From the NCBI GenBank assembly GCA_001783215.1, contig MFRA01000005.1, forward strand, positions 146,824-210,823: a stretch of 64,000 bases of DNA. Direction: 5' to 3'. The DNA comes from Candidatus Magasanikbacteria bacterium RIFOXYD1_FULL_40_23. GTDB lineage: Bacteria; Patescibacteriota; Patescibacteriia; Magasanikbacterales; GWA2-37-8. The position numbers were made by a program, and so were the translations under genes. The stretch's first letter is position 1. The number at the start of each line of letters is the position of its first letter. Positions 3,505 through 61,041 of this stretch are shown piece by piece. Under the pieces are notes generated by a model. That model ran no database searches and had not been told where the DNA came from. It worked only from the letters and a program-made list of their open reading frames with translations.

Positions 3505-3876
3505 TTGCCCCTAGCAGTACCAGTAAACAGCAAACTTGGGGAATTTGCCAAATATGTGGAGTCTCGGCGCATGAATCGTATCGTGAGTGAAAAAGAATCC
3601 GCAGTAAGTGGCTGTCTGCACAACTTCATTGAAGCAAGTATTCAGCGTGGAGACTGCTCCGTGCAATACGTGATTTGTAGTCGGTGCGGTCGGTGTAAGC
3701 TGTGGATTTGCAATGGCCATAAGAAGTGGCCGGAAGTGGGTGTGAAGACTCTGGATCAAGCGCGGGACGCGCTCATCTCTGCTGGTCAGATTCTCGATAT
3801 TTCAGCCGGGGTTATCCTTGACCTCGACGCCAGGATGGTGGAGTTGTTCCCGGCGCACGTGTCATCCTTGGCCTAG
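3505..3876 (+). CDS. hypothetical protein (GC-rich ORF)
   Basis: 123-aa ORF. GC is clearly higher than in the flanking genes. No recognisable motif. Confidence 0.3.
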   Translation: MPLAVPVNSKLGEFAKYVESRRMNRIVSEKESAVSGCLHNFIEASIQRGDCSVQYVICSRCGRCKLWICNGHKKWPEVGVKTLDQARDALISAGQILDISAGVILDLDARMVELFPAHVSSLA

Positions 3877-4091: not shown

Positions 4092-4538
4092 GTGAGCGAT
4101 CCTTTGACAAAGAATTGGTATCAATCATTCTTTATTCCCATGACGGTACCTGATTTGGAAAGTGGATTGCAAAGATGGGCGATGTTTACCGTCTTTAGTT
4201 TGAATGAGAAACAACCATACTCGGGGCGGTTGAGGATCTATATTTTGTACTCAGCTGAACAAGTAGGTAAGATGGTTGAGGAGACCAAAAACGATCATTG
4301 CTTGATGGACGGTTTTCTTGAAAAGGCTAGGGAGTCAGCGTTGTCCGGCACATTTCCAGAGCATGATTATGAAGGCTTGCCTGCTGCAGAGATGTCTGAA
4401 AATTTAGTGGCGTTAAAGATGCTTGCAGGGTTTGTCTTTCAATATATGACTGGACAGATTCAAGTAACCCCAAACGCAGAAGGTGGCGCCGAGTCTGAGA
4501 TGATTACTTCTGGTAGCGGAGAAAAAGCCAAAGCATAA
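4092..4538 (+). CDS. hypothetical protein
   Basis: 148-aa ORF with a GTG start. No motif recognised. Confidence 0.35.
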   Translation: MSDPLTKNWYQSFFIPMTVPDLESGLQRWAMFTVFSLNEKQPYSGRLRIYILYSAEQVGKMVEETKNDHCLMDGFLEKARESALSGTFPEHDYEGLPAAEMSENLVALKMLAGFVFQYMTGQIQVTPNAEGGAESEMITSGSGEKAKA

Positions 4539-4863: not shown

Positions 4864-5109
4864 TCAATGGGTCTTGTCTCGGAAGTTGCTGGTCGGTTCG
4901 TCGTCGGGCGTCCCGTTGTCGTTCTCCGCATCGTCGCAGTCGGACGTCGGATCCGTTCCGGGCTGGTCGGGCGTCTTGTCGACCGTGGCGTCCTTGTTGG
5001 TGAAAGGCTTCTTGAACTCATGCCTGTCCTTGAGCTCGTCGAAGGACGGATCGGGTTGGTCGGAGAAGGGGAAGCGGGTGTCGTATGCGTGATTCGGCAG
5101 GTGGCTCAT
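4864..5109 (-). CDS. hypothetical small acidic protein (GC-rich)
   Basis: 81-aa ORF with a strong upstream SD (aaggagatacccATG on the minus strand). High GC, D/E/P/T-rich. Confidence 0.45.
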   Translation of the reverse strand: MSHLPNHAYDTRFPFSDQPDPSFDELKDRHEFKKPFTNKDATVDKTPDQPGTDPTSDCDDAENDNGTPDDEPTSNFRDKTH

Positions 5110-5215
5110 GGGTATCTCCTTTTTTCTCTTAACCTAGCAGAATTACGACAAAATGTCACAATTTCACCTAGGTGAAAATGATTATACCTTATTTTGGGTT
5201 TTTTTTCAAGTATCT

Positions 5216-5390: not shown

Positions 5391-5541
5391 ACAAAATTAA
5401 ATTATTTTATTAAGATAAATTAATTATACATTAAATTTCTAAATAACTCAAATGGATTGCATGCTTTATTGTTTTGGTATATTATCTGCCCAAGGCAAGC
5501 TTGGTTGTATATCAGACCAAAACAACAGGAGGGAACCTAAA

Positions 5542-6210
5542 ATGATTCGCACCGCAGACCAGTGGGAAGCGGAATATAAGAACAGGAAAGCTCTTTGGAT
5601 TCACAATGGCAACCCAAGGCAGCCACACCCGATTCTTTCTTCAGGCGACCATTCAAACGGCTTCTTTAATAGTCGTTTGGTAACCAGCGATTCGATGTTG
5701 TTGCACGATGCCACTTCTGATTTGCTTGAATTGTTCGAAGAACATAGAGGGGATTTCTGGCAAGTTGATGGGTGTGTCGGTCCGCAAACCGGCGCCACCA
5801 GATTGGCGCAAGTAGGAAGTGTTTGGGTTAGTGAATATACCCGCCGTCCATGTTTCTTTGCTTCGCCAGCAAAGCACGGAGAAGGCGAAAGTAGGTCTAT
5901 GTTGTTTAGTAAAGAGGAATCAGCCCTTTTGTCTGGTAAAACAGTGCTTCCGTGGGAGGATGTCGTTACCACAGGAGCCAGTGTTGGTTTGATGGTTGAT
6001 GCAGTTGTTAAAAACGGCGGAGTCGTTTTGTCATATATTCTTGCGTTGGTGAACCGATCCAATCTACAAGCAGTAGACGGCAGAAGGATTGTTGCGCTTT
6101 TCAAGCGTCCGAGGTCTATCGAGGCACCCAGCAATTGCAGTCTTTGCAAATTGGGTTCGGAAGCCATTTATCCGAAAGACAATTGGGATCGTTTCAATGA
6201 GTCGTGCTGA
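5542..6210 (+). CDS. phosphoribosyltransferase family protein (orotate-PRTase-like)
   Basis: PRPP-binding motif LPWEDVVTTGASV plus HPILSSGDHSNGFFN. Internal ATG start with an SD (caggagggaacctaaaATG). Moderately GC-rich. Confidence 0.6.
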   Translation: MIRTADQWEAEYKNRKALWIHNGNPRQPHPILSSGDHSNGFFNSRLVTSDSMLLHDATSDLLELFEEHRGDFWQVDGCVGPQTGATRLAQVGSVWVSEYTRRPCFFASPAKHGEGESRSMLFSKEESALLSGKTVLPWEDVVTTGASVGLMVDAVVKNGGVVLSYILALVNRSNLQAVDGRRIVALFKRPRSIEAPSNCSLCKLGSEAIYPKDNWDRFNESC

Positions 6211-9489: not shown

Positions 9490-9727
9490 ATTTAAAAGCC
9501 CGCTTTTGGCGGGCGTAGTTTCTATATAAAACTACACCTGCGTTAGGCGTTATTATTATTCAAATTGTTATTTAGGCTTTTCATAAGAATTATAATAAGT
9601 CTTTTATGGTTTTCTGTCAATGATTGACTTCTCGCTGTGATTATGATATATAAATATGTCTGTTAATTTTGCGGACTTTGACACGTGTGTTGTCGAAGAC
9701 GTGGAAAACAGGCAAAGGAGAGAGCTC

Positions 9728-10294
9728 ATGAGTTTCTGGGGAAAAGCCTGGTATTACATCAAGCGCTTTGGCTATTGGTTTGATGGTCGAGAAGAGCGTC
9801 CGGCCCTCCCGCCAGCAATGCAGACAAACCTTTCTATGTTGGTGGCTTCGGTTTTTGTTCGTGAGCCGAACGGTTCCCGAACTAATATCGAAAACCATCT
9901 GGAGCAGGAGTTGATCCTGCGTCATGCCAAGGTGGTGGTAGCCAATCAAAAAGTAGGTATGGCTATCATTAAAGATGGCACATTTCAGCCTCTGGCTACT
10001 AATGCGAACTGTTCGTTCGTGGGTACTCTGAGAATAGAAAGAGATGTGGTATTTGAGGATCAAACTAGAGGCGGTAAGAAAAAAGAGACCGACGGCGTGA
10101 TGTTTATCCTTAGTTTCCGCCTTTTTGGTATCGATGGGACCGTTCTAATCTCCGGAACGGCTGAAATAGATGGGGAAGCGGGCATGATTTCATACGACGA
10201 AGAGATGCGTTCTTTGGCTGCCGAAGCCATCACTTATCTGGACACCACGGATGTCTGGGCAAATGTGATTGTTTCCACGACATCTACTGACTGA
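9728..10294 (+). CDS. hypothetical protein (moderately GC-rich)
   Basis: Internal ATG with an SD (aaaggagagagctcATG). 188 aa with no recognised motif. Followed by a hairpin plus T-run at ~10300-10335. Confidence 0.4.
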   Translation: MSFWGKAWYYIKRFGYWFDGREERPALPPAMQTNLSMLVASVFVREPNGSRTNIENHLEQELILRHAKVVVANQKVGMAIIKDGTFQPLATNANCSFVGTLRIERDVVFEDQTRGGKKKETDGVMFILSFRLFGIDGTVLISGTAEIDGEAGMISYDEEMRSLAAEAITYLDTTDVWANVIVSTTSTD

Positions 10295-12119: not shown

Positions 12120-13094
12120 TTAAATCAATCCCATTTTTGTTTTTACTTCTTCCATTTTTTTCTCTGCCACACCCTTTGCTTTTTTGGCACCATCTTCCAA
12201 AATCTTTTTTACTTTGTCATCGTCTAAGGCATTAAATTTATCTTGAAACTGTGAGATAAATTCTACAACTACCCCGGACAATCCTTTTTTGAAATCTGCA
12301 TAGCCTTTGCCTGTATATTCTTTTTCTATATTTTTTATACCTTGGCCAGAAAGTAGAGAATATATAGTAAGTAGGTTGGCTAGCGCTGGTCTGTCTGCGC
12401 CGGATTCTATGGTAGTACCAGAGTCGGTAACTGCGCGAGATATTTTTTTGGCAACTACTTCTGGGGAATCAAGTAGGGCGATATAGTTGTTGGCGCTAGT
12501 GGCGCTCTTGCTCATTTTTTTGGTTGGGTCGTCTAGTCCCATTATACGAGCGCCCTCTTTATTTATCATTGGCTCAGGCTCAACAAATGTTTTGCCATAT
12601 AGCGAATTAAATCTTGCAGCCAAATCGCGGGTTAATTCTACATGCTGTTTTTGATCTTCGCCAACTGGTACTACTTCTGGGCTATATAATAGGATGTCGG
12701 AAGCCATAAGTACTGGGTAATCGAATAGACCCATATTTATATTTTCTTTGTGATCTTTGGCTTTATCTTTAAACTGCGTCATGCGTTCTAGTTCAGAAAC
12801 TTTGGCAACTGTATTTAAAATCCAAGCCAACTCGGTATGCTGTGGTACGTGTGATTGAACAAAAATTGTAGACTTGTTTGGGTCAACCCCCAAAGCCAAA
12901 TAAGTTTTGGCTACATTTAAAACATTTTGACGAAGTTGTTTAGGGTCTTGTTTTATGGTTATGGCATGCAAATCTACCACGCAATAAAAAGCGTCGTATG
13001 AGTTTTGTAGCTCTACCCAGTTTTTGATTGCGCCCAAGTAATTACCCAAGTGCAGGTTGTTGGTTGGTTGTACGCCGGAGAAAACTCGTTTCAT
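12120..13094 (-). CDS. trpS: tryptophanyl-tRNA synthetase
   Basis: Class I HIGH-type motif (TNNLHLGNYLGA) and KMSKS. 324 aa. Confidence 0.9.
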   Translation of the reverse strand: MKRVFSGVQPTNNLHLGNYLGAIKNWVELQNSYDAFYCVVDLHAITIKQDPKQLRQNVLNVAKTYLALGVDPNKSTIFVQSHVPQHTELAWILNTVAKVSELERMTQFKDKAKDHKENINMGLFDYPVLMASDILLYSPEVVPVGEDQKQHVELTRDLAARFNSLYGKTFVEPEPMINKEGARIMGLDDPTKKMSKSATSANNYIALLDSPEVVAKKISRAVTDSGTTIESGADRPALANLLTIYSLLSGQGIKNIEKEYTGKGYADFKKGLSGVVVEFISQFQDKFNALDDDKVKKILEDGAKKAKGVAEKKMEEVKTKMGLI

Positions 13095-13244
13095 GGTGGT
13101 AAGTTTAAACAGATTAATTGATTACTTGGATAGTTTACCGAATTTGACTGTGATTGTAAACAATCGGCCTAAGGGGTTGATTTTTATCGTTTTATATGGT
13201 ATAGATAAATTTGTATTCTTCCCACACAAACCACAAGAGGATAT

Positions 13245-13598
13245 ATGGAAGTTCCGTGTAGGTACGTCGTAGATCGTGAAGTTAGCCTCTATCTGCTTCT
13301 TTATGTGCTCCTCAAGAGCAAGCTGTCCGAAGAGCAGCAGGAAGTAATTGGCACGATGGACGAGATGGATGCCGAGTTGCACAACTTGGCCAAGCTGGTA
13401 TTGCCTGGCTATGCGAGTCAGTGGCCAAAGATGGCCCGTTTGCAGCTTCCGCATTTGGAGTCAGCTCTGCAGGAGCGGTTTCCGGAGTTGGTTCAGCTCC
13501 CTGTCAAGCACTTGCTTGGAGCAAGTCAGTTCCGAACGTGGTTGACTCATCAGGTCGCTCGCTTCGGTGAGTGGCTAGATATCGATTCGAAGGGGTAG
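13245..13598 (+). CDS. hypothetical protein (GC-rich; start uncertain)
   Basis: 117-aa ORF in a GC-rich patch. Followed by a hairpin plus T-run at ~13625-13660. Confidence 0.25.
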   Translation: MEVPCRYVVDREVSLYLLLYVLLKSKLSEEQQEVIGTMDEMDAELHNLAKLVLPGYASQWPKMARLQLPHLESALQERFPELVQLPVKHLLGASQFRTWLTHQVARFGEWLDIDSKG

Positions 13599-13656
13599 TA
13601 TAGTGGCGGAAGCCAAAATCGGTTGGGGCGCGGACTCTGTGTAGGACCGCCCTTTT

Positions 13657-14130
13657 TTAATAGTGATAATTTCTACTGGAGTTAATCATCATAGCTCGAT
13701 AAATTTGCTCCCACAAAAATACCCGTGCCATTTGGTGAGTAAAAGTCATAGAAGATAAAGAAAGTTTGAGTTTAGCAAGTTTTAAAATAGATTCGTGCAG
13801 GCCAAGTGGTCCGCCGATAATAAATGTGAGGTGATGAAATTGTTCTAGTTCTGTAAAATGCTGAGCAAATTGTTTGGAAGAAAAGTTTTTGCCATGTTCG
13901 TCTAAAACAATTATGTGCGCATCTTTTATTTTTTCTAAAGTACCTATAATTTTTTCTGCTTCTTTTTGTTTTATATTTTCTATATTATCTTTTTCCGAAA
14001 AAGATTCTTCTCGCAGTTCGTGAATGGTAATTTTGGCCCAAGGTTTTAGGCGTTTTAGATATTCACTTTCAGCTTCTTGCCAGAAGGTTTCTTTTAATTT
14101 TCCCAAAATGATTAAATCTATGTGTAACAT
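13657..14130 (-). CDS. rlmH: 23S rRNA (pseudouridine1915-N3)-methyltransferase RlmH
   Basis: SPOUT-family signature: IIVLDEHGK...FIIGGPLGL...LSLSSMTFTHQMARV. 157 aa. Confidence 0.85.
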   Translation of the reverse strand: MLHIDLIILGKLKETFWQEAESEYLKRLKPWAKITIHELREESFSEKDNIENIKQKEAEKIIGTLEKIKDAHIIVLDEHGKNFSSKQFAQHFTELEQFHHLTFIIGGPLGLHESILKLAKLKLSLSSMTFTHQMARVFLWEQIYRAMMINSSRNYHY

Positions 14131-14139
14131 AATGAGTAT

Positions 14140-14500
14140 AAAATTTTTGCCCCGTCCTTTTGTGAAGAACGGGGCTGGTGAGGAAGTGGTATTCCCGAGC
14201 TAGTTTCGGGTTATCGACCACGATTCCTTCTCTTGATGAGGCCGCGAGCCGGCTGTCCAGATTGTTTTCGGTGTCGCCCCCTGGCGCTATTGTTCTTCTG
14301 TTTCCTTCTCGTGTGAAATGGTGGGTAGCGCACCTCTTCGGACGGTCTCCGAAATTCGGTATACTGTAAGCCCAAGACGGAGCAGTAGAGAAAGATGATG
14401 AGTGGCACGGCGCCTCCCTTTGGGTTGTTGGTGTAGCAGTCCGGCGTTGACCGGAAAGATACATTTGCACTCCGGATACTACATGAATAATGTGCAAAAG
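14140..14500 (+). ncRNA. rnpB: candidate RNase P RNA (rnpB); boundaries approximate
   Basis: A ~360-nt GC-rich non-coding stretch whose only ORFs are overlapping junk. GUGUGAAAUGGUGGGUAGCGCACC resembles the bacterial P10-P12 'GUGNAAA...GGUGCGGUAAGAGCGCACC' region. GGUAUACUGUAAGCCCAAGACGGAGCAGUAGAG resembles 'GGUAAACUCCACCCGGAGCAAGGCCAAAUAGG'. A P3-like hairpin (gccccgtccttttgtgaagaacggggc) is followed by GAGGAAGUGG (compare GAGGAAAGUCC). A putative P4 pairing is GUGGUAU / AUACUAC. Confidence 0.5.
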
Positions 14501-14585
14501 TCAATCTTGACAACTATAGATTAATACTTTTACAGGTTAAAATGGATGTGATATATTTTATGTATACTTATTTTATTTTAAACGT

Positions 14586-14837
14586 ATGTCAAATAGACAA
14601 GAGCGTGGAATAGGTGAAGAAAATATAGAAGTTTTTCAAAATCCGGACAAACCGGTTGTGGAAGCTAGTCCGCTGGCTCCGGGGGTGCTAAAAGTAAAAA
14701 GAGGTGATGCGCCACCATCAGTAAATAAGGTAGATAGAGCGACTGCGCAAGCAAGACTCGATTCTTTAAAGGGACCTGGGTCTAAAATTGTAGGTGGTGG
14801 GTCTGCACCTAGTCGAAATGGAAAATTTAGTAGATGA
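14586..14837 (+). CDS. hypothetical small Gly/Pro-rich protein (GC-rich)
   Basis: 83-aa ORF followed by a clean terminator. Confidence 0.4.
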   Translation: MSNRQERGIGEENIEVFQNPDKPVVEASPLAPGVLKVKRGDAPPSVNKVDRATAQARLDSLKGPGSKIVGGGSAPSRNGKFSR

Positions 14838-14842
14838 AATGA

Positions 14843-14876
14843 AAATCCGGTCGCATTGTGCGAGCGGATTTTTTCT
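14843..14876 (+). terminator. rho-independent terminator
   Basis: aaatccggtcgcattgtgcgagcggatttttt. Confidence 0.6.
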
Positions 14877-14923
14877 TTGTGCTACTAGAATAACTACGTT
14901 TCGCTTAAAGCACGAGAGGGTGA

Positions 14924-17725
14924 TTGTTCGTTGACAATACACCGAAACTTGCAACCGATAGGAAGTACCAAATGTCGAAATCTCCAAAGAAAAGGACCCC
15001 AGCAGAGGAGCTGGCTTGGTTATGTGATTTTTCTATTACCGCCTGCGTGGCTCACGTGAGTGAGTTTGCGCCAGGCACTGATTATTTCAAGGCTGCCGAA
15101 GCAGATGCATCGGTGGTCATTGAGAGTCTAAAGCAGACGCCGGATCTCACAGGTGTGATTATCGACGGTATGGCCAGCGTGCGCCGTCCCGGTATTCTTG
15201 ATGACAGCGTGGTGTTCTATAACAGTACCGAAGAAGAGGTGCTCGCACACCTTGAAAAGGTGCCATCGCACGACCACGTTCACTGGATGTTTAACAAACT
15301 TTTAGAGATCCAAGATGTGTGGCTTGGCAAATTCCGTAAGGCGTTGCCGGCAGTCAAGATTGTTTATTCGGCCGACTCGGACGACTTGGCAGCTACGGCC
15401 GAGCGCATGTTGCGGGTGATTGTGCAGTCTGCAACGGTAAAAGCTTCTCAGACTAAGAAGAGTTTGGAAGAGCAGCGTGATGAGCTGCAAGCCAGGCTCG
15501 ATGGTCCGGGCAAGCTGACTAGCTCTGTTCTGCAGGCTAAGTTGCACGAGCTCCAATCTAAGCGCAAAAAGTTGGTTGGAACCTCTGGTAAGAGTGAGCT
15601 CAGGGCAGTTGAGGCTGATTTTGCCGAGGCGAAAGAAGGCCTACATCTTCTCGCTGAGCGTGAGCGGTTGGTAATTAAGCTTCGAGTCAATAAGGCAAAG
15701 AAGAAGCAAAAGTTAATCGAAAAAACCGAAGCCGAGCTGGTTTCGGTTCAAGCCGAGATTAGCGCCAGAGAAGATGGTGTGGTCAAGGCACTGAACAAGG
15801 CTATTGAAGCTAGAGAAAGGTTCAGTGGCGAGGTTGGCAAGAAAGCCGATCGCGATGCCCTTGATTTGGACATTAAAGAGCTTCGAAAGAGCATCGAAGA
15901 TATTAGAGAAAAAATTGCCAAGATCCAAACCAGAATGACCAAGCTGGAAAAGGTCTTTAAGAACTTGCGTGAATCGGAAACTAGCCCGGTATACGGTAAG
16001 CGTATGACCGAGCACGTGCGCAGGTTGTATAAGCGCTTCTATGCTTTGGGTCAAAAGCACAATGTCCAAGTTGTGTTCAAGCCCGAAGTGCTGGTCTTTG
16101 GAAATTTGGTGATTGACTATGCGCACGATCGCGGCCGCACTTGGCAGCCGATGCCTGGGCGTGTGCGTCGATTGGCAGAGTCGTATCATGGAATGATGAC
16201 AAGCTATCGTGAAAACATTGCCGAAGCGCTGGAGGAGCAAAAGGCTGCTACGCGCGAGGTGGATGTTGTTATGGAGAGCGGTCATCACGGTGTCTTCTTT
16301 GCTCGTTGGCAGAAGCAGGAGCTTACGCCGGAAGAAATTCGCATGCAGCACGTGAACACGTACTACACGGGTGCAAGCGATGATGTGAAACACACGGTGT
16401 TTATTGCAGGTATGCCGTTTGAGCCGCAAGATGAGATCGATAAGTACCTCAAGCGACAGAAGCCGGGTCGGACCCGTGCTGGCAAGCCTATTGCCAGTTC
16501 TTCGCACCCCGTGTTTATTCGTAACTCTCAGAAGTCAGTTGCCGGTGTGACGCTTGTGCGTAAACACAACCACGGACTAATTTCCGTGGAAGCGATTATG
16601 TACTTTCTCTACCGGAATAAGCAGGTGTTGGAACAGTTCAAGGGCGTGATGATTCTGCTTGATTCAGATAATCACTTGAACTCGCCCGAAATGGATTGCC
16701 CAGGCACTCTCGGTGAGCTTGCCCTTCTTGATCAGCTGATCAAGAATCCTATGGTGCTCTACAACCAGAAGATCTATGTGGGTGGCAACCTTAACTTGGG
16801 TGATGTATCCGAAGCGAACTCCAAGAAGTGGAAAGAGGCAGTTAAATTCCGTCGCCCGGTGATGGAAATTCTTCAGGAAATCGCTATGCTCGTCGCTGGA
16901 ACTGATACCAGCAACCCCAAGTCTGTGGCCGAGACTGCGCTTCGTTGGGCCAACGACATGATGGGTGGAGCAAACGAGAGTATGAAGTTGAATATGCGGG
17001 TAACGAAGTGGTTCCTCAAGGAGAAATTCATGAGGATCTATAATCAGAGCCCGACTCGTTTGCGCGACATTATGGCCGTGTTGGAGGGCAATCACTTTGC
17101 CGATGCGGTGCGTGATGTTGGTATTCAGGAGTTTACTTTGTTTGAGGAGTGGTTAATTGCTATGCGGGATGCGCACATTGATTTTCCGGAGAAGGGGCGC
17201 AAGCCTTTCCCTGTGAGAATCGAGGCCGGTGGCGAACCGCAATACTTCCAGCCGGATAATGGCAAGGCCGAAGTAGTGGTGCACTTAGGAGGTTATAGCA
17301 GTGCTCGACAAGGAATTATTGAGAAGTTTGGTGTGGGCCATGATGGCAAGTTGCTAGTGCAAGCTCCTTGTAGGGTTGGGCTCACTCACGAGCCGAACGC
17401 CATCTTGAATAAGGCTCGTAACCAGAACGCTGACGTGACCTATGCGGGGCATACGCATGAGTTTTACGTCATGGCAGATAAGAGTGGCACTAACAAGGTG
17501 CGTTTCATCCATCAGCTGGGTGCAACGCAGCGAGTGTCTGCTACAGAGCTAATGTATGGTGGATTGCCTCGTACGTCTGGAGTAGCGCTGGCTGTTATTC
17601 CGCGTCCAGGGCGATATTGGACTATGATGATCCCTATGAACCACATGCGTCGCATTGGTGAGGCGCAGCGAATGGTTGATGCAGAAGCAGAGGTGGCCAA
17701 GAAGAATGGTAAAAAGAAAGAGTAA
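14924..17725 (+). CDS. large hypothetical protein (933 aa). It has an N-terminal domain, a long coiled-coil region and a C-terminal region with weak metallophosphatase-like motifs. An alternative start at 14972 is possible.
   Basis: Long GC-rich ORF (~52% GC). Heptad-like charged segment around aa 180-360. DYAHDRG and GHTHEFYV resemble calcineurin-like phosphoesterase motifs II and VI; this is tentative. The alternative start MSKSPKK has an SD (ggaagtaccaaATG). Confidence 0.55.
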   Translation: MFVDNTPKLATDRKYQMSKSPKKRTPAEELAWLCDFSITACVAHVSEFAPGTDYFKAAEADASVVIESLKQTPDLTGVIIDGMASVRRPGILDDSVVFYNSTEEEVLAHLEKVPSHDHVHWMFNKLLEIQDVWLGKFRKALPAVKIVYSADSDDLAATAERMLRVIVQSATVKASQTKKSLEEQRDELQARLDGPGKLTSSVLQAKLHELQSKRKKLVGTSGKSELRAVEADFAEAKEGLHLLAERERLVIKLRVNKAKKKQKLIEKTEAELVSVQAEISAREDGVVKALNKAIEARERFSGEVGKKADRDALDLDIKELRKSIEDIREKIAKIQTRMTKLEKVFKNLRESETSPVYGKRMTEHVRRLYKRFYALGQKHNVQVVFKPEVLVFGNLVIDYAHDRGRTWQPMPGRVRRLAESYHGMMTSYRENIAEALEEQKAATREVDVVMESGHHGVFFARWQKQELTPEEIRMQHVNTYYTGASDDVKHTVFIAGMPFEPQDEIDKYLKRQKPGRTRAGKPIASSSHPVFIRNSQKSVAGVTLVRKHNHGLISVEAIMYFLYRNKQVLEQFKGVMILLDSDNHLNSPEMDCPGTLGELALLDQLIKNPMVLYNQKIYVGGNLNLGDVSEANSKKWKEAVKFRRPVMEILQEIAMLVAGTDTSNPKSVAETALRWANDMMGGANESMKLNMRVTKWFLKEKFMRIYNQSPTRLRDIMAVLEGNHFADAVRDVGIQEFTLFEEWLIAMRDAHIDFPEKGRKPFPVRIEAGGEPQYFQPDNGKAEVVVHLGGYSSARQGIIEKFGVGHDGKLLVQAPCRVGLTHEPNAILNKARNQNADVTYAGHTHEFYVMADKSGTNKVRFIHQLGATQRVSATELMYGGLPRTSGVALAVIPRPGRYWTMMIPMNHMRRIGEAQRMVDAEAEVAKKNGKKKE

Positions 17726-17746
17726 GAATTTTTTTAAACTAGGTTG

Positions 17747-17783
17747 TTGGGGTGTTCGGAATGTCCGAGCACCCCTTTTTTTG
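17747..17783 (+). terminator. rho-independent terminator
   Basis: ggggtgttcggaatgtccgagcaccccttttttt. Confidence 0.7.
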
Positions 17784-17898
17784 TTGTCAGCGACGAGATG
17801 AGCTTGCGAATCCGTCTGGCTGACAATCCGCCGCGTTTGCGGGTGCCACAGAGCCGAATGGGTGTGCGGTGGAGGGAGAGGCGGATACAATGAAGTAA

Positions 17899-19236
17899 TT
17901 AAATCCACTTTTTAAGTAACTCACCAAACTTATTTTGTTCAATTGCAGTTCGTGCTTGGTTCATTAGATCAAGCATAAAATATAAATTGTGAATGCTGGC
18001 CAAACGCATGCCGGAAAGTTCGCCAGCATTAAAAAGATGGTGCACGTACGCACGAGAATAATTTATGCAAGTATGGCATTTGCAATCTGGATCTATGGCG
18101 CCAGTATCTTTTGCATATTTTTTATTTGTAATATTGATTCGTAACTTTTCGTCTATATTTCTGTTTACAAATACCATGCCATGTCTGGCCAGTCTGGTAG
18201 GAGCCACACAATCAAACATATCTACGCCGTGCTCTATTGCAATAAGTAAATCTGTAGGGGACAAGCCGATACCCATAGCATAGTGCGGTTTGTTTTCTGG
18301 AATAAGAGGAAATACCCAGTCTAAAATATCGGCCGTTGCTTTCATATTATATCCCACAGATTCGCCGCCAATGGCGATACCGTCAAAATCTAAAGATGAA
18401 ATATATTTGGCAGATTCTTCGCGTAGATTTTTGTAAACAGATCCTTGGATAATACCAAAAAGAAATTGTTTATAATCACGAGTATTTTTTGTAGATAATT
18501 CTTTGTGCGCATCTAGGGATCGTTTGGCCCAGCGGTGGGTGCGTTCCATTGCTTCGCGCGCATATTTTTCTTCTACATTGTCCGGAGTGCATTCATCAAA
18601 TGCCATTATAATATCGGCGCCAATTTTGTGTTGGATCTCTACGGCTATTTCTGGAGTAAAGCGATGTGAGCTCCCATCTATATGTGAGCGAAAAGTAACA
18701 CCTTCTTCATCTATAGAAACAAGTTGGCCTTGTTCTCGTTTGTCATTCTGAGGCGTAGACGAAGAATCCCTTTTGTCCGAACGAGAGGGATCCTTCACTC
18801 CGTTCAGAGCCTGTCCTGAGTTTGTCGAAGGGATGACAGACTGCTGTCGGTCATCTTTTTGTTTGCCCAAACTAAATACTTGAAAACCACCACTATCGGT
18901 AAGGATTGGCTTGTTCCAGTTCATGAATTTGTGAAGTCCGCCAAAATCGTTTATTAAATCTTCGCCCGGGCGTAAATGCAAATGGTAAGTATTACCCAAG
19001 ATAATCTGAGCTGGTAAATTTTGCAGGTCAGTTTGGTCTAGAGTTTTGACTGTGGCTTGTGTGCCGACAGGCATAAAAATAGGTGTTTGAATATCACCAT
19101 GATCTGTATGGATTATGCCAGTTCTGGCACGGGAATTTGTGTCTTTGTGTTGTAGTTCAAAAAATGACATATTTTGGGGAAAGCTTAGCATGATTTTTGC
19201 TTTGTAGCAATGATATATAAATAAGCCCCAGGACAT
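17899..19236 (-). CDS. tgt: queuine tRNA-ribosyltransferase carrying an in-frame ~40-aa low-complexity insertion
   Basis: Tgt hallmarks are present (TPIFMPVGTQATVK, FSLG...EEGVTFRSHIDGS, DECTP). An extra hydrophilic segment, KQKDDRQQSVIPSTNSGQALNGVKDPSRSDKRDSSSTPQNDKREQ, is encoded by the R3 repeat at 18741-18840. Confidence 0.85.
   Translation of the reverse strand: MSWGLFIYHCYKAKIMLSFPQNMSFFELQHKDTNSRARTGIIHTDHGDIQTPIFMPVGTQATVKTLDQTDLQNLPAQIILGNTYHLHLRPGEDLINDFGGLHKFMNWNKPILTDSGGFQVFSLGKQKDDRQQSVIPSTNSGQALNGVKDPSRSDKRDSSSTPQNDKREQGQLVSIDEEGVTFRSHIDGSSHRFTPEIAVEIQHKIGADIIMAFDECTPDNVEEKYAREAMERTHRWAKRSLDAHKELSTKNTRDYKQFLFGIIQGSVYKNLREESAKYISSLDFDGIAIGGESVGYNMKATADILDWVFPLIPENKPHYAMGIGLSPTDLLIAIEHGVDMFDCVAPTRLARHGMVFVNRNIDEKLRINITNKKYAKDTGAIDPDCKCHTCINYSRAYVHHLFNAGELSGMRLASIHNLYFMLDLMNQARTAIEQNKFGELLKKWI
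18741..18840. repeat. R3 palindromic (MITE/RPE-like) element, copy A, inserted in-frame within tgt
   Basis: tgtcattctgaggcgtagacgaagaatcccttttgtccgaacgagagggatccttcactccgttcagagcctgtcctgagtttgtcgaagggatgacag shares the X/Y/Z modules with the copies at 21709-21738 and 22035-22168. Confidence 0.65.
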
Positions 19237-19257
19237 CTAGTCCTAGGGCGGTCATCC

Positions 19258-19878
19258 TTACTGCGCAAGCAGTGCAGCCTGTCCATCTGCAACTCGCCTG
19301 ATCTCGTCTCGCAACCACGTAGTGCGTGGTTGGTATTGTGGCGGAGTGAGCTGGACCATTCGGTCAAAAAGATGGTAGTAGTGGTCGCGAGTTTCTGCTA
19401 CCTGCTTTTTACGGAACGCTTCATCGGTCTGTGCAAGGTCTCGAAGATTGAAAAGTCTATCGCAACCTTTGATGGCAAGCATTTCCCAATCAATGGATAG
19501 CATTAGACGTTCCAAGTATCCCTCTTCCGGGATCTTGCTTAGACCCTTTACCTTGGTAACCACATTGCTTCCAAATGCATGCTCAATCATTTCAGGTGTT
19601 AGGTCTTCCGTGTCTTCCAGACTATCGTGCAGCAGAGCAGTGATAATCATCTCGGCATCAACGATTTTCACTTCGTCGATCAAGATTAGTGCCGCTCCGC
19701 GCAGGTGTTCGAAATACCGGATTGGTTTCCCTTCATCATCCACGCTCTTGCGAACTTGGGCGCGATGCCCAAACTTTGCCATCATGTAAGCGAATCGAAT
19801 GTCGCACAGTATGCTGGGAGCGAAGAACGGGTTGATACGGCTAAAGAACAGCTCTTTGTTTTCGACGGGCTTCGTCAC
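19258..19878 (-). CDS. HD-domain protein; RelA/SpoT-type (p)ppGpp hydrolase domain (small alarmone hydrolase-like)
   Basis: HRAQVRKSVDDEGKPIRYFEHLRGAALIL...ALLHDSLEDTEDLTPEMIEHAFGSNVVTKVKGLSKI matches the SpoT HD hydrolase motif pattern (HxGQxRK...LLHDxxEDT...FG..V..lV.gvtK). Confidence 0.7.
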   Translation of the reverse strand: MTKPVENKELFFSRINPFFAPSILCDIRFAYMMAKFGHRAQVRKSVDDEGKPIRYFEHLRGAALILIDEVKIVDAEMIITALLHDSLEDTEDLTPEMIEHAFGSNVVTKVKGLSKIPEEGYLERLMLSIDWEMLAIKGCDRLFNLRDLAQTDEAFRKKQVAETRDHYYHLFDRMVQLTPPQYQPRTTWLRDEIRRVADGQAALLAQ

Positions 19879-20101
19879 TAGTTTCCTCCTACTTGGATTG
19901 TGAAAGAATGGGTGATTATATGTAAATTTTTTATAACTGTCAATAGTAGTATTATAAATATGAATTTATTAAAAATAATCCCCAAGTAGGTAGTGTTTGT
20001 TGCTCTGGTGTCGATGGTAAAGATGTGGTAGTATTTACTTGGTTAAATTTTAAGTGTATTGTATGCCAGGAGAAAAACCAGGCGGTAATCCAGGAGAAAA
20101 A

Positions 20102-58903: not shown

Positions 58904-59056
58904 TTTATTCTTAGCCAAATTTTGACTTGTAAACATTGACAAAATGGCAAAAATATGATAATAATATGCGCAGATAACCCTCCGCTTTGGAGGGCTCTTT
59001 GACAATGTGTGGCGGTTAGATTCGCTACACATAAGACACAGTCGGGGGAAACGTCA

Positions 59057-60331
59057 ATGGCTTTCGAACAGAAACAGGCAACAGGAAGTGGTGCTTTGGA
59101 TAATAGCGCGGAAGGTGCCAGCTATCGGGCTGGTGCTGGTGGGCAGAAAGGCAATGGTGCTGCTGCCGGGAAGGTTCCGGCGACCTCCAAGCTTAGGGTC
59201 AAGCCTAAGCAGGCTGCTGAACCCGAAGAGATCGTTATGACCGGCCACCCCTTGCTCGACAAGGGGCTTGCCTGTGATGATCGAGAGGGCAAGGCGCCTG
59301 AATGTCCGCTTGATGAGCGGGACGCCAAACGTCTTGAAGATATGGTTGAGCGTGCGGGCACGGCCTATTGTATGGCCATGATCATGGCGCTCGGCAATCT
59401 CTATCTCGAGTTCAAGACCAAGCATCACAAGACTTGGGGTCCGTGGCATGAGATTTTCTTTCTCGTTGTAACCACAGCGGCCTTCGGTCCGCTTGGTGCG
59501 CTTGGTGCCTCGGTAGGAGCTCGTGCAGCTGTGGGGCTCGCGATGCGTGGTGCCACAAGGGCAGCATGGACAGCAGCCAGCATTGATGCATCGAAGCTCA
59601 TTGGCGTTTTCACTACGATGTCGAAGGGTGTGCGTAGCTCCCTTGCCCATCGTAGCGTTGATATGCCGACCGACGAGATTGAGTTCATCAAGTACATGCA
59701 GGACCAGGTGCCGGGCTTCGTCGAGAATCTCATGCAAGGCATTGCTGAGCATGAACTTGATCAGCTCGAGATGCTCGAAGTGGTCGCCCGGCTACAAGAT
59801 CCGGACATTTCCGGACGGGCTGCTATTGAGCACCGTGGCCGTACGTTGTTGGCACAGTTCGGCGAGAACCGCATCGGTTCGATTGGGAATGTTATGGACC
59901 TTGGTGGAGGTTACGAAGTAGCTACTCCAGTACGCGTTCGTCTTCGCAAGAAGGAATTAATGGTTCTATGTGAAAGCCTTGGTGTTCACCATTCGGCCCT
60001 TGCGCTTAATGGTGCCAACCTGGACCTGGAACCAGGTGTTTCTAAGATGACGATGGAGAGCCTAGTCTACGTCAAGATGATTGAACCGGCTTTTCATGAG
60101 CTGGTTACCGCTGAGTACAGTGGTAAGCGGAAAGAGGAAGTTCCGTTCATCAACTTCGATGATTGCGCCGAGCGAAAGAAACATCGTTGGTTCAAAGATA
60201 TGTACCACGATATGAAGCGGCGCGAACGGCTTGAAAAATATATCGACGATATGCACAACATTGGCGGGCTGCCTGCCAATGACATGGACGACGAAAACAA
60301 TGGTGACATGGTCGCCGAAGCGGGAGAGTGA
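59057..60331 (+). CDS. hypothetical protein (GC-rich, ~55% GC; internal Gly/Ala-rich hydrophobic segment)
   Basis: 425-aa ORF. SD gggggaaacgtcaATG. Preceded by a TTGACA...TAATAAT promoter (~58938-58966) and the hairpin ccctccgctttggaggg. Confidence 0.5.
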   Translation: MAFEQKQATGSGALDNSAEGASYRAGAGGQKGNGAAAGKVPATSKLRVKPKQAAEPEEIVMTGHPLLDKGLACDDREGKAPECPLDERDAKRLEDMVERAGTAYCMAMIMALGNLYLEFKTKHHKTWGPWHEIFFLVVTTAAFGPLGALGASVGARAAVGLAMRGATRAAWTAASIDASKLIGVFTTMSKGVRSSLAHRSVDMPTDEIEFIKYMQDQVPGFVENLMQGIAEHELDQLEMLEVVARLQDPDISGRAAIEHRGRTLLAQFGENRIGSIGNVMDLGGGYEVATPVRVRLRKKELMVLCESLGVHHSALALNGANLDLEPGVSKMTMESLVYVKMIEPAFHELVTAEYSGKRKEEVPFINFDDCAERKKHRWFKDMYHDMKRRERLEKYIDDMHNIGGLPANDMDDENNGDMVAEAGE

Positions 60332-60756
60332 ATACAGTGAGGAATGCAATTTTCGTCATCATCTTTACTGGTCTGATCGGCTTTCTGGGGCTCACTTCCA
60401 AGAGGCAGTACGATAAGATTAACACACTTACTTCACAGGTCTCCAAACACAAGGAGGTTCGCGAGAAGATGTGCAATCGCATCCTGTCTATTTCTGAAGA
60501 AATGGCTCAGGTGACCCTTCAGACGCCGCTCAACATCGAGGATAGTCAACGGCTGCGCACAGACTTGCTAGCAGTTGGGGCCTATGCCGAAGGATGTGTT
60601 GATCTGCCTAGTATCACCAAGAAAGCAATGGAGGGTTGTCAGAACGGAAGTGTTGACGACAGTCTTCTCAAAGAAGGTGTTTGGGCGCTCGACGAAGAGT
60701 TGAGCGTTGCCAAGAAGAATGGGTGGAAACTATATGAGCAGAAGCCCAAGTTGTAG
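60328..60756 (+). CDS. hypothetical membrane-anchored protein (GC-rich), translationally coupled to the upstream ORF
   Basis: The GTG start overlaps the upstream TGA (GTGA). N-terminal TM helix AIFVIIFTGLIGFLGL. 142 aa. Confidence 0.45.
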   Translation: MNTVRNAIFVIIFTGLIGFLGLTSKRQYDKINTLTSQVSKHKEVREKMCNRILSISEEMAQVTLQTPLNIEDSQRLRTDLLAVGAYAEGCVDLPSITKKAMEGCQNGSVDDSLLKEGVWALDEELSVAKKNGWKLYEQKPKL

Positions 60757-60959: not shown

Positions 60960-61041
60960 GCCGAAGTGGCGGAATTGGTAGACGCACACGACTCAAAATC
61001 GTGCGGAGAAATCCATGAGAGTTCGATTCTCTCCTTCGGCA
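60960..61041 (+). tRNA. tRNA-Leu (anticodon CAA), type II with a long variable arm
   Basis: GCCGAAGTGGCGGAATTGGTAGACGCACACGACTCAAAATCGTGCGGAGAAATCCATGAGAGTTCGATTCTCTCCTTCGGCA. Anticodon loop ACTCAAAAT. Confidence 0.85.

Follow-up and report, generated by a model that had tools for sequence, protein, structure and literature searches.

We have analysed a 64,000-nucleotide window of the genome of Candidatus Magasanikbacteria bacterium RIFOXYD1_FULL_40_23 (contig MFRA01000005.1, positions 146,824 to 210,823), and describe here the interval 14586-17895, in which two plus-strand open reading frames (ORFs; 83 aa at 14586-14837 and 933 aa at 14924-17725) lie between rlmH and tgt. The G+C content of the interval is 49.9%, against 39.9% in the rest of the window, and the contrast with the neighbouring DNA that was pointed out in an earlier reading of the letters alone (the sequence-only reading) is thus borne out by measurement. 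The larger ORF is our main subject; it presumably encodes an active metallophosphoesterase with a predicted coiled-coil arm, and it is preceded by a boxA-like leader element. The features of the locus are as follows, in window coordinates; L numbers designate loci and contigs used for comparison, and GC3 is the G+C fraction at third codon positions.

13657-14130, minus strand: rlmH, left neighbour of the two-ORF interval
14529-14557, plus strand: promoter-like site of the small ORF (TTTACA, 17 nt, TATATT, with TG), from a consensus scan; the block is conserved in L003, L013 and L014
14586-14837, plus strand: small ORF, 83 aa, pI 10.1, 12% Gly, GC3 0.23
14841-14879, plus strand: intrinsic terminator of the small ORF, beginning 3 nt past the stop codon
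14928-14938, plus strand: boxA-like element TCGTTGACAAT (family consensus GCTCTTTGACAATTTAA), the best-conserved block of 11 aligned leaders
14960-14965, plus strand: Shine-Dalgarno sequence AGGAAG, 6 nt upstream of the ATG and identical among the window, L013, L014 and L003
14972-17725, plus strand: putative metallophosphoesterase gene, 917 aa (mechanical ORF from TTG 14924), with 33 full-length homologue clusters and an AlphaFold2 (AF2) model
17749-17782, plus strand: intrinsic terminator of the large gene, 12-bp stem with 8 GC pairs, T7
17783-17895, no strand: GC-rich (60%) spacer from the terminator to the TGT stop codon
17899-19236, minus strand: tgt, right neighbour of the two-ORF interval

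The mechanical ORF of the large gene opens at TTG 14924 and corresponds to the 933-aa protein of the sequence-only reading. All of the homologues (33/33) begin at an internal Met, with MSKSPKK... matching ATG 14972, the Shine-Dalgarno sequence AGGAAG precedes this ATG, and the TTG-initiated extension overlaps a conserved non-coding leader block. Because of these three features we place the start at ATG 14972, and the predicted product is 917 aa long. Residue numbers of the large protein count from TTG 14924, not from ATG 14972. The parts of the protein and its motifs are as follows.

14999-15376, plus strand: N-terminal alpha/beta domain, residues 26-151, from AF2 secondary structure
15377-15961, plus strand: coiled-coil arm, residues 152-346, with AF2 helices 152-258 out and 262-346 back
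15962-16627, plus strand: basic, beta-rich middle domain, residues 347-568, pI 9.7, from AF2
16115-16135, plus strand: DYAHDRG, residues 398-404, middle domain
16274-16291, plus strand: ESGHHG, residues 451-456, middle domain
16451-16489, plus strand: disordered basic loop KRQKPGRTRAGKP, middle domain
16628-17638, plus strand: predicted calcineurin-like metallophosphoesterase domain, residues 569-905, from motifs and Foldseek
16661-16675, plus strand: motif I, DSDNH, residues 580-584, key residues invariant
16799-16804, plus strand: motif II, GD, residues 626-627, key residues invariant
17087-17095, plus strand: motif III, GNH, residues 722-724, key residues invariant
17384-17398, plus strand: motif IV, THEPN (H822), key residues invariant
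17447-17461, plus strand: motif V, GHTHE, residues 842-846, key residues invariant
17639-17722, plus strand: C-terminal helix and Lys-rich tail, residues 906-933, AF2 helix 905-927

The C-terminal domain contains the five-motif set of calcineurin-like enzymes, complete and in canonical order. The sequence-only reading had singled out DYAHDRG and GHTHEFYV as phosphatase motifs, had called them degenerate, and had found the other motifs not to be evident. Both strings are present (398-404 and 842-849), although DYAHDRG lies outside the catalytic domain; DSDNH, GD, GNH and H822 are all there and invariant in the family, and the catalytic set shows no degeneration. In a 33-sequence alignment that takes in relatives at only 17-30% identity, the invariant columns are D582, H584, G626, D627, N723, H724, H822, G842, H843 and H845, and these are almost exactly the catalytic motif residues. 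D582, H584, D627, N723, H822, H843 and H845 are candidate metal ligands, and H724 is a candidate general acid. Since the active-site motif set is complete, the C-terminal 340 residues would constitute a complete binuclear metallophosphoesterase, presumably an active one.

Structure prediction points to the same superfamily. The AF2 model of the full-length protein (predicted local distance difference test, pLDDT, 79.6; predicted template modelling score, pTM, 0.75) was searched with Foldseek, and its matches outside the coiled coil are phosphoesterases (the YydB model 9a6c_B, the Pol delta B subunit and Lmo2642). A separate AF2 model of residues 352-933 (582 aa, pTM 0.79) gave a metallophosphoesterase fold in 22 of the 23 top PDB matches (E 3e-4 to 0.25), with YydB 9a6c_B (2.9e-4), Vps29, purple acid phosphatase, LpxH, SbcD and the Pol delta B subunit among the neighbours, and the BFVD matches are phage metallophosphatases and proteins named 'DNA polymerase II small subunit' (E 2e-6 to 5e-3). 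Foldseek thus recovers the beta-sandwich alpha/beta fold, albeit with template modelling (TM) scores of merely 0.25-0.55. The calcineurin-like relationship proposed in the sequence-only reading is therefore upheld by the complete motifs and by the fold.

Profile searches see much less of this relationship. Pfam, PHROGs, NCBIfam and PADLOC returned nothing above threshold, the matches being of the coiled-coil type together with a 14-bit match of Metallophos_2 to GHTHE; no clear homology of the large protein to a housekeeping family emerged. Only 4 of the 33 family members give any Pfam Metallophos match, and the PF00149 gathering score is attained by a single remote relative, P0059 (21.6 vs 21.5). 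The top PDB matches of the family profile were designed Kelch proteins that share 'GHTH' and coiled coils, with no phosphoesterase among them, and these were set aside.

Comparison with known proteins places the domain within the calcineurin-like superfamily only as an extremely divergent member. It shares with that superfamily (the clan of PF00149 Metallophos and PF12850 Metallophos_2) the DxH, GD, GNH, H and GHxH motifs and the predicted beta-sandwich, but its motif II reads GDxxE(A)NS and not GDxxDRG, a helical insertion of ∼70 residues separates motifs II and III, the domain stands at the C-terminus of a 917-aa protein with three extra modules, and its sequence resembles that of no solved member. 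The best Foldseek match, Bacillus subtilis YydB (a predicted phosphoesterase, PDB 9a6c with YydD), has E-values of 1.4e-3 with the full-length model and 2.9e-4 with the C-terminal model and a probability of 0.99, but the TM-score is just 0.25 and the identity 10%, and 9a6c is an integrative model and not an experimental structure. A literature search on YydB/YydD returned nothing on function. The best viral-library matches (2e-6 to 5e-3, TM up to 0.54 on the target) are proteins resembling the PolD small subunit (DP1) or phage 'DNA polymerase II small subunit'; the window protein differs from these in lacking a Pfam DNA_pol_E_B signal, in having no polymerase gene nearby, and in its flanking domains.

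The combination of a metallophosphoesterase with a long Rad50/SMC-like arm recalls Mre11/SbcD and Rad50/SbcC, and SbcD is a weak fold neighbour (E 0.04). Here, however, a single chain is predicted to carry both parts, with no ABC ATPase head and no zinc hook, and the phosphoesterase domain is C-terminal with no recognised Mre11-type capping domain. Pfam, NCBIfam and PHROG gave no Mre11/SbcD profile match, and no Rad50/SbcC-like gene is adjacent in the neighbourhoods examined. Rad50, SMC and LmuB ATPases possess a Walker A/B ABC ATPase head, split by an antiparallel coiled coil, and a CxxC hook or hinge, whereas the window protein has neither. It is thus a member neither of Mre11/SbcD nor of Rad50/SMC, and we file it as a new divergent architecture in the metallophosphoesterase superfamily.

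Upstream of the catalytic domain the AF2 model supports the layout given in the sequence-only reading, with an N-terminal domain, a coiled coil of ∼195 aa (152-346) and then about 580 aa. The N-terminal domain is conserved across the wider family, with G82, P89 and P142 nearly invariant, and it had no family or structure match. From its helix lengths, the coiled coil would form an antiparallel hairpin of roughly 14-15 nm, whose apex is a short Lys-rich turn of variable length. Its matches to LmuB, Rad50 and SMC are confined to the coiled coil and lie far below cut-offs; the likeness is one of composition only. The large protein has four Cys in total and contains no P-loop, no CxxC and no membrane segment, and no signal peptide is apparent in the 917-aa form, so that the product appears to be soluble and to include no ATPase. 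The middle domain and the arm are basic (pI 9.7), and the homologues carry K/R-rich C-terminal tails of variable length.

We also considered whether the N-terminal and middle regions are a duplicate of the catalytic domain. DSDD(F)H (151-156), DYAHDRG and ESGHHG are collinear with catalytic motifs I-III, and a forced hhalign alignment pairs DSDD with DSDNH, DYAHDRG with GD, and SGHHG with GNH (without statistical support), the coiled coil falling between 'I' and 'II'. However, hhalign gives the duplication a probability below 1% and we rejected it; the residues of these three strings are not invariant in the family, and Pfam found no Metallophos signal in the isolated middle domains of seven members. 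A degenerate second phosphoesterase module in this region is therefore only a lead.

The sequence-only reading had reported no recognisable homology. This is true of curated families, but a search of 5.8 billion clustered proteins yielded 33 clusters of full-length homologues (∼910-940 aa, 52-78% identity), all unannotated, and among 1.84 billion representatives a profile search matched just 46 proteins at E <= 1e-3, 32 of them at E <= 1e-30. Most of the 46 are ∼800 aa long and align from where the coiled coil ends through to the C-terminus; one cluster of this wider family is named Candidatus Nanoarchaeia (DPANN). A pattern search of 185,579 GTDB species representatives matched Patescibacteria only, one of them labelled otherwise: two Magasanikbacteria, a Parcubacteria-group genome, a Patescibacteria-group genome, and one metagenome-assembled genome labelled Gammaproteobacteria. 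The lineage-specific alternative that had been offered alongside horizontal acquisition thus holds, with the addition of a DPANN relative.

Two of these relatives deserve separate mention. The sequence named 'uncultured Gammaproteobacteria bacterium' (L008, CAZMYO010000007.1) has a 60%-identical orthologue with an exact boxA consensus in its leader, and the bin is probably mislabelled. In L135 (8001-11420) there is a 1139-aa relative with an extra N-terminal region of ∼500 aa that has no Pfam domain; its neighbours (MTHFR, NYN, Fic and LAGLIDADG) are unrelated genes, and the one named member of its cluster is a Candidatus Nanoarchaeia archaeon. This suggests that the family has crossed between bacteria of the Candidate Phyla Radiation (CPR) and DPANN archaea.

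The gene occupies conserved positions. Relatives at 57-60% identity have it in the same place, in the order TrpRS(-), (RlmH(-)), gene(+), TGT(-), UvrD, S12/S7/EF-G, and the closest relatives are also syntenic with the window locus. A second context, NusA-YidC-PRC-(gene)...Wzy-GroES/EL, includes an 810-aa orthologue with 31% identity. In all related loci with enough flank to judge, the gene lies in one of these two contexts, whereas a recently acquired island would be expected to be absent from the corresponding locus of related genomes. In the same genome pairs the gene is 57-60% identical, against 80-83% for TrpRS, 78-81% for UvrD, 76-83% for EF-G, 68-73% for TGT and 95-98% for S12, with RlmH within the neighbours' range of 68-98%; by this measure the large gene evolves faster than its neighbours. 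We found no relatives in IMG/VR, GenBank phages or PLSDB plasmids, no integrase, transposase, other mobility gene or tRNA target at the locus, and no meaningful direct or inverted repeats flanking it. The synteny in two contexts, the restriction to Patescibacteria, and the lack of viral, phage or plasmid relatives and of flanking repeats all argue that the gene is vertically inherited in the ultra-small Magasanikbacteria and in related Patescibacteria.

The base composition of the gene is unusual. Its G+C content is 50.6% (GC1/GC2/GC3 0.58/0.37/0.57), and its GC3 of 0.57 stands against about 0.32, the recognisable housekeeping genes of the window ranging from 0.23 to 0.36. Lys is encoded by AAG in 77% of cases (18% in core genes), GAG is used at 61% against 19%, and G/C-ending Val codons at 69% against 21%. 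Codon usage differs from the core with a chi-square p of about 1e-49, and the anomaly described in the sequence-only reading therefore stands; amino-acid frequencies are near core values, and the excess lies in synonymous codon choice and not in amino-acid composition. The same is seen in the relatives. The G+C content of the gene exceeds that of its flanks by 2 to 11 points in 11 of 11 related loci, over flank values of 33%-49%; its GC3 is above the flanking median in all six loci computed, and in four of these it is above that of every flanking ORF of at least 200 aa. Because the excess recurs in all 11 loci, the anomaly is an inherited property of the family and no mark of recent import. 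The cause might be selection for rare codons that are decoded slowly, or else biased gene conversion linked to recombination in a gene that evolves fast.

We note that codon usage in the window is bimodal, with about a dozen orphan ORFs of GC3 0.44-0.64 (for example 3505-3876, 4092-4538, 4867-5175, 5452-6210, 9656-10294 and 13245-13598). None of those scanned had a Pfam match, and some may not be real genes.

The leaders of the orthologues contain a block, G(C/T)TCTTTGACAAT(TTAA), that occurs in both synteny groups 30-110 nt before the start and is often followed by a C/A-rich tract. It is present in nearly all of the orthologue leaders, and in the window and the closest relatives it reads GTTCGTTGACAAT at 14926-14938. 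The gamma-proteobacterial boxA consensus is GYTCTTTAANA, and boxA also regulates mRNAs such as that of E. coli suhB (Baniulyte et al. 2017, PMC5725501). The block GCTCTTTGACAAT has 0-2 mismatches to this consensus (none in L008, two in the window). As with the boxA of rrn leaders and of the suhB mRNA, the GCTCTTTGACAA-type block lies in the 5' untranslated region and matches the consensus, but here it precedes a putative phosphoesterase gene of Patescibacteria. In L050, L101 and L127, three metagenome contigs without taxonomic assignment, the exact family 16-mer precedes a 16S rRNA gene by about 100-210 nt in the sense orientation, and the same sequence thus appears to occur in rrn leaders. 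Taken together, the block is a putative Nus-factor (NusB/S10) site. The start of leader transcription is placed from promoter-like hexamers only. We considered the TTGACA embedded in the block as a -35 hexamer and rejected it, since no -10 hexamer is conserved 16-18 nt downstream in any locus.

A relaxed boxA pattern, set post hoc, has three sites in the window, each in the leader of a GC-rich ORF. In a stricter test across loci, with the phosphoesterase genes excluded, a boxA-like site lies upstream of 1 of 16 high-GC3 ORFs against 2 of 165 others (p = 0.24), and we discarded the notion that GC-rich genes form a boxA regulon. A second GC-rich locus (58940-60756) has ORFs at 59009-60331 and 60328-60756 (GC3 0.56-0.58), which have no Pfam, NCBIfam or PADLOC match; there is no Rfam RNA gene at 58940-60756. 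The locus is preceded by a near-consensus promoter (TTGACA-17-TAATAAT) and a hairpin, CCCTCCgctttGGAGGG, directly followed by GCTCTTTGACAAT, which is the boxB-boxA order of rRNA leaders, and a tRNA-Leu follows at 60960. A GC-rich gene at 19258-19960 (minus strand, GC3 0.53) encodes a 206-aa HD_4 / SpoT-RelA-hydrolase-like protein, a candidate small alarmone hydrolase; its consensus promoter, TTGACA-17-TATAAT, is followed within about 10 nt by TTCTTTCACAAT, a boxA-like sequence with two mismatches (19907-19897). In the metagenome contig L120 (291-4457) the boxA 16-mer lies directly upstream of an array of about 14 tRNAs, which also holds a GOLLD RNA (Rfam RF02032, 198 bits).

Each of the two ORFs has its own terminator, as had been proposed. 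That of the small ORF consists of a hairpin (14841-14873) and a T-run, with a folding energy of -19 kcal/mol and z = -3.9, and its stem pairing is kept by base changes in both arms in L013, L014 and L003. That of the large gene consists of a hairpin (17749-17775) and T7, with z = -5.1. The large gene is monocistronic.

The small ORF had been taken as a Gly-rich protein, as part of the GC-rich anomaly, and as one half of a two-gene system. Its Gly content is merely 12% (10/83), its GC3 of 0.23 is like that of the host, and it is restricted to the closest relatives, with normal codon usage and a terminator of its own. Its exact match in public sources is a hypothetical protein of Candidatus Magasanikbacteria bacterium RIFOXYD1_FULL_40. 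It has two relatives at 76-81% identity, with 24:20 and 24:15 synonymous to non-synonymous codon differences, which is consistent with a translated protein; it is cut to 51 aa in L003 and was not detectable in L001, L002 or more distant relatives. We conclude that it is a separate, young, genus-level gene with host-like codons. Since its stop codon is 3 nt before the terminator stem, one may speculate that its translation could influence read-through into the large gene.

Between the large-gene terminator and tgt, the spacer 17783-17895 is GC-rich, as described before, but the structure attributed to it is not significant. Folded alone it has z = -1.8 on the plus strand and -2.4 on the minus strand, and apart from one hairpin it folds no better than shuffled sequences. 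It has no Rfam match and no further copies in the window or related loci, nor does the upstream region, and in the relatives the gap at its position is just 58-62 nt; the spacer is probably not a functional element but incidental. An Rfam scan of the window and of 13000-19500 (at the gathering threshold, then at E <= 1) found nothing in the GC-rich flanks, the only matches in the window being two tRNAs elsewhere and one chance long non-coding RNA match. The segment 14131-14520, from rlmH to the small ORF, is 50% GC and ∼79% identical in L013, begins with a hairpin (about 14143-14168) and has no Rfam match. Its minus strand has a possible Arg-rich ORF of ∼63 aa (...PLIIFLYCSVLGLQ...RPSEEVRYPPFHTRR...KRRNRGR) that is open in L013 too, and the equivalent segment of L003 has a different but similarly basic ORF; the segment is a candidate protein or RNA gene. 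The TGT encoded in the window is 445 aa long, against 385 aa in relatives, owing to an N-terminal extension and a low-complexity Ser/Asp/Lys-rich insertion (...SVIPSTNSGQALNGVKDPSRSDKRDSSSTPQNDKREQGQ...).

We consider it probable that the large gene is a vertically inherited, lineage-specific metallophosphoesterase that acts as a phosphodiesterase on nucleic acid, with a coiled-coil arm and a boxA leader. Nucleic acid is our best guess for the substrate, held with modest confidence, because the arm and middle domain are basic, as are the loop in the middle domain and the tails of the homologues, and because nucleases and polymerase accessory subunits are among the fold neighbours. The enzyme would hydrolyse phosphodiester bonds in DNA or RNA ends, the arm and the basic domains serving as a scaffold that holds the substrate or dimerises, and the protein would be a functional counterpart of the Mre11/SbcD-type nucleases in a single chain and without an ATPase. 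The leader would recruit NusB/NusE-type factors, which may act on the termination or translation of an mRNA that is rich in rare codons and slowly translated, and so keep expression low and controlled; the effect could be either to protect a slow transcript from termination or to repress translation. This link between rare codons and antitermination is only what we infer. Several observations weigh against this interpretation. Proteins of AT-rich genomes commonly have a basic pI. The gene lacks a conserved operon partner, and genes for DNA repair or RNA processing are not consistently found beside it. The Foldseek E-values and TM-scores are modest and the root-mean-square deviations large, the Metallophos_2 match falls short of the Pfam cut-off (14.0 bits vs a threshold of 27), and phmmer and hmmsearch found no PDB phosphoesterase, whether the query was the complete protein, its C-terminal domain, the family profile or a remote relative. 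The fold neighbours include the phosphatase PAP, the lipid pyrophosphatase LpxH and the inactive scaffold Vps29 beside nucleases, and the subfamily, hence the substrate, cannot be assigned by homology. In the leader, the window copy of the boxA element (GTTCGTTGACA) is the most degenerate of the set, and the family 16-mer has 120 matches in metagenomes, most of them unrelated to rRNA. A bolder version, in which the protein is an ATPase-less, single-chain analogue of Mre11-Rad50, not described before and confined to ultra-small CPR and DPANN symbionts, with the arm inserted into a degenerate second phosphoesterase module and with expression tied, by way of boxA, to the antitermination machinery of rRNA and to deliberately rare G-ending codons, seems to us rather unlikely.

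Other explanations account for parts of the same evidence. The substrate could instead be a phosphoprotein or a small molecule, such as a cyclic or linear nucleotide, an alarmone, or the pyrophosphate of a lipid or sugar, with the coiled coil serving oligomerisation or localisation. This is a minority possibility that we take seriously, since purple acid phosphatase, LpxH, Lmo2642 and the YfcE/Vps29-like group are among the fold neighbours, the sole Pfam signal is that of Metallophos_2, a YfcE/MJ0936-type family, on the GHTH motif, the GC-rich HD_4 (SpoT-type hydrolase) gene is 1.5 kb away, and a YfbR-like HD nucleotidase neighbours the gene in L004 and L005. However, an arm of the 15-nm class and two extra basic domains would be unusual for such a hydrolase, motif III is GNH here whereas that of the YfcE-type group is typically GNCD, and the identity of the neighbours differs between the two synteny groups. 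Alternatively, the gene could by itself encode an anti-phage or conflict protein, an SMC-armed effector resembling those of Lamassu, SbcCD or ABC-3C, and an arms race would then explain its rapid evolution and atypical composition; the arm matches LmuB coiled-coil models (PADLOC E 1.7e-7), the best structural match, YydB, is modelled in a complex with YydD, the gene evolves faster than all of its neighbours, and the family, which includes a DPANN relative, is rare and patchily distributed. But the PADLOC matches are limited to the coiled coil and the ATPase heads are missing, a housekeeping synteny fixed over deep divergence is atypical of defence genes, and there are neither partner genes nor a defence-island context, so that we regard this explanation as distinctly unlikely.

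The remaining two explanations are improbable. Recent acquisition as a foreign island or mobile element, as in the sequence-only reading, would fit the strongly atypical GC3 and codon usage and the lack of a curated family match, but it is largely refuted, and we give it very little weight, because orthologues at 31-78% identity are syntenic among housekeeping genes and each has the same GC excess, and because there is no integrase, transposase, flanking repeat or tRNA target and no viral, phage or plasmid relative. The other is a protein without catalytic activity that keeps a phosphoesterase-like fold for a structural or scaffolding role, like Vps29 and the polymerase B subunits; Vps29 and the Pol delta B subunit do occur among the fold neighbours. 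We hold this to be extremely improbable, given that the metal-ligand and general-acid residues are invariant throughout the family, whereas dead members of the fold (Vps29 and the eukaryotic B subunits) have lost active-site residues.

If the leader element is what it appears to be, a conserved rrn-type boxA before a CPR protein gene would extend Nus-factor regulation beyond rRNA, which has so far been established mainly in gamma-proteobacteria (PMC5725501). The composition of the gene shows that an atypical GC3 (0.57 vs 0.32) can persist in one family across genomes of 33-49% GC, and it is a caution against inferring horizontal transfer from composition. In the minimal genomes of Patescibacteria each conserved gene of 2.7 kb comes at a cost, and here a large gene with no annotation, Pfam family or solved relative has nonetheless been conserved. 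The predicted intact metallophosphoesterase with its SMC-like arm offers a concrete and testable biochemical hypothesis for this conserved CPR 'hypothetical' protein.

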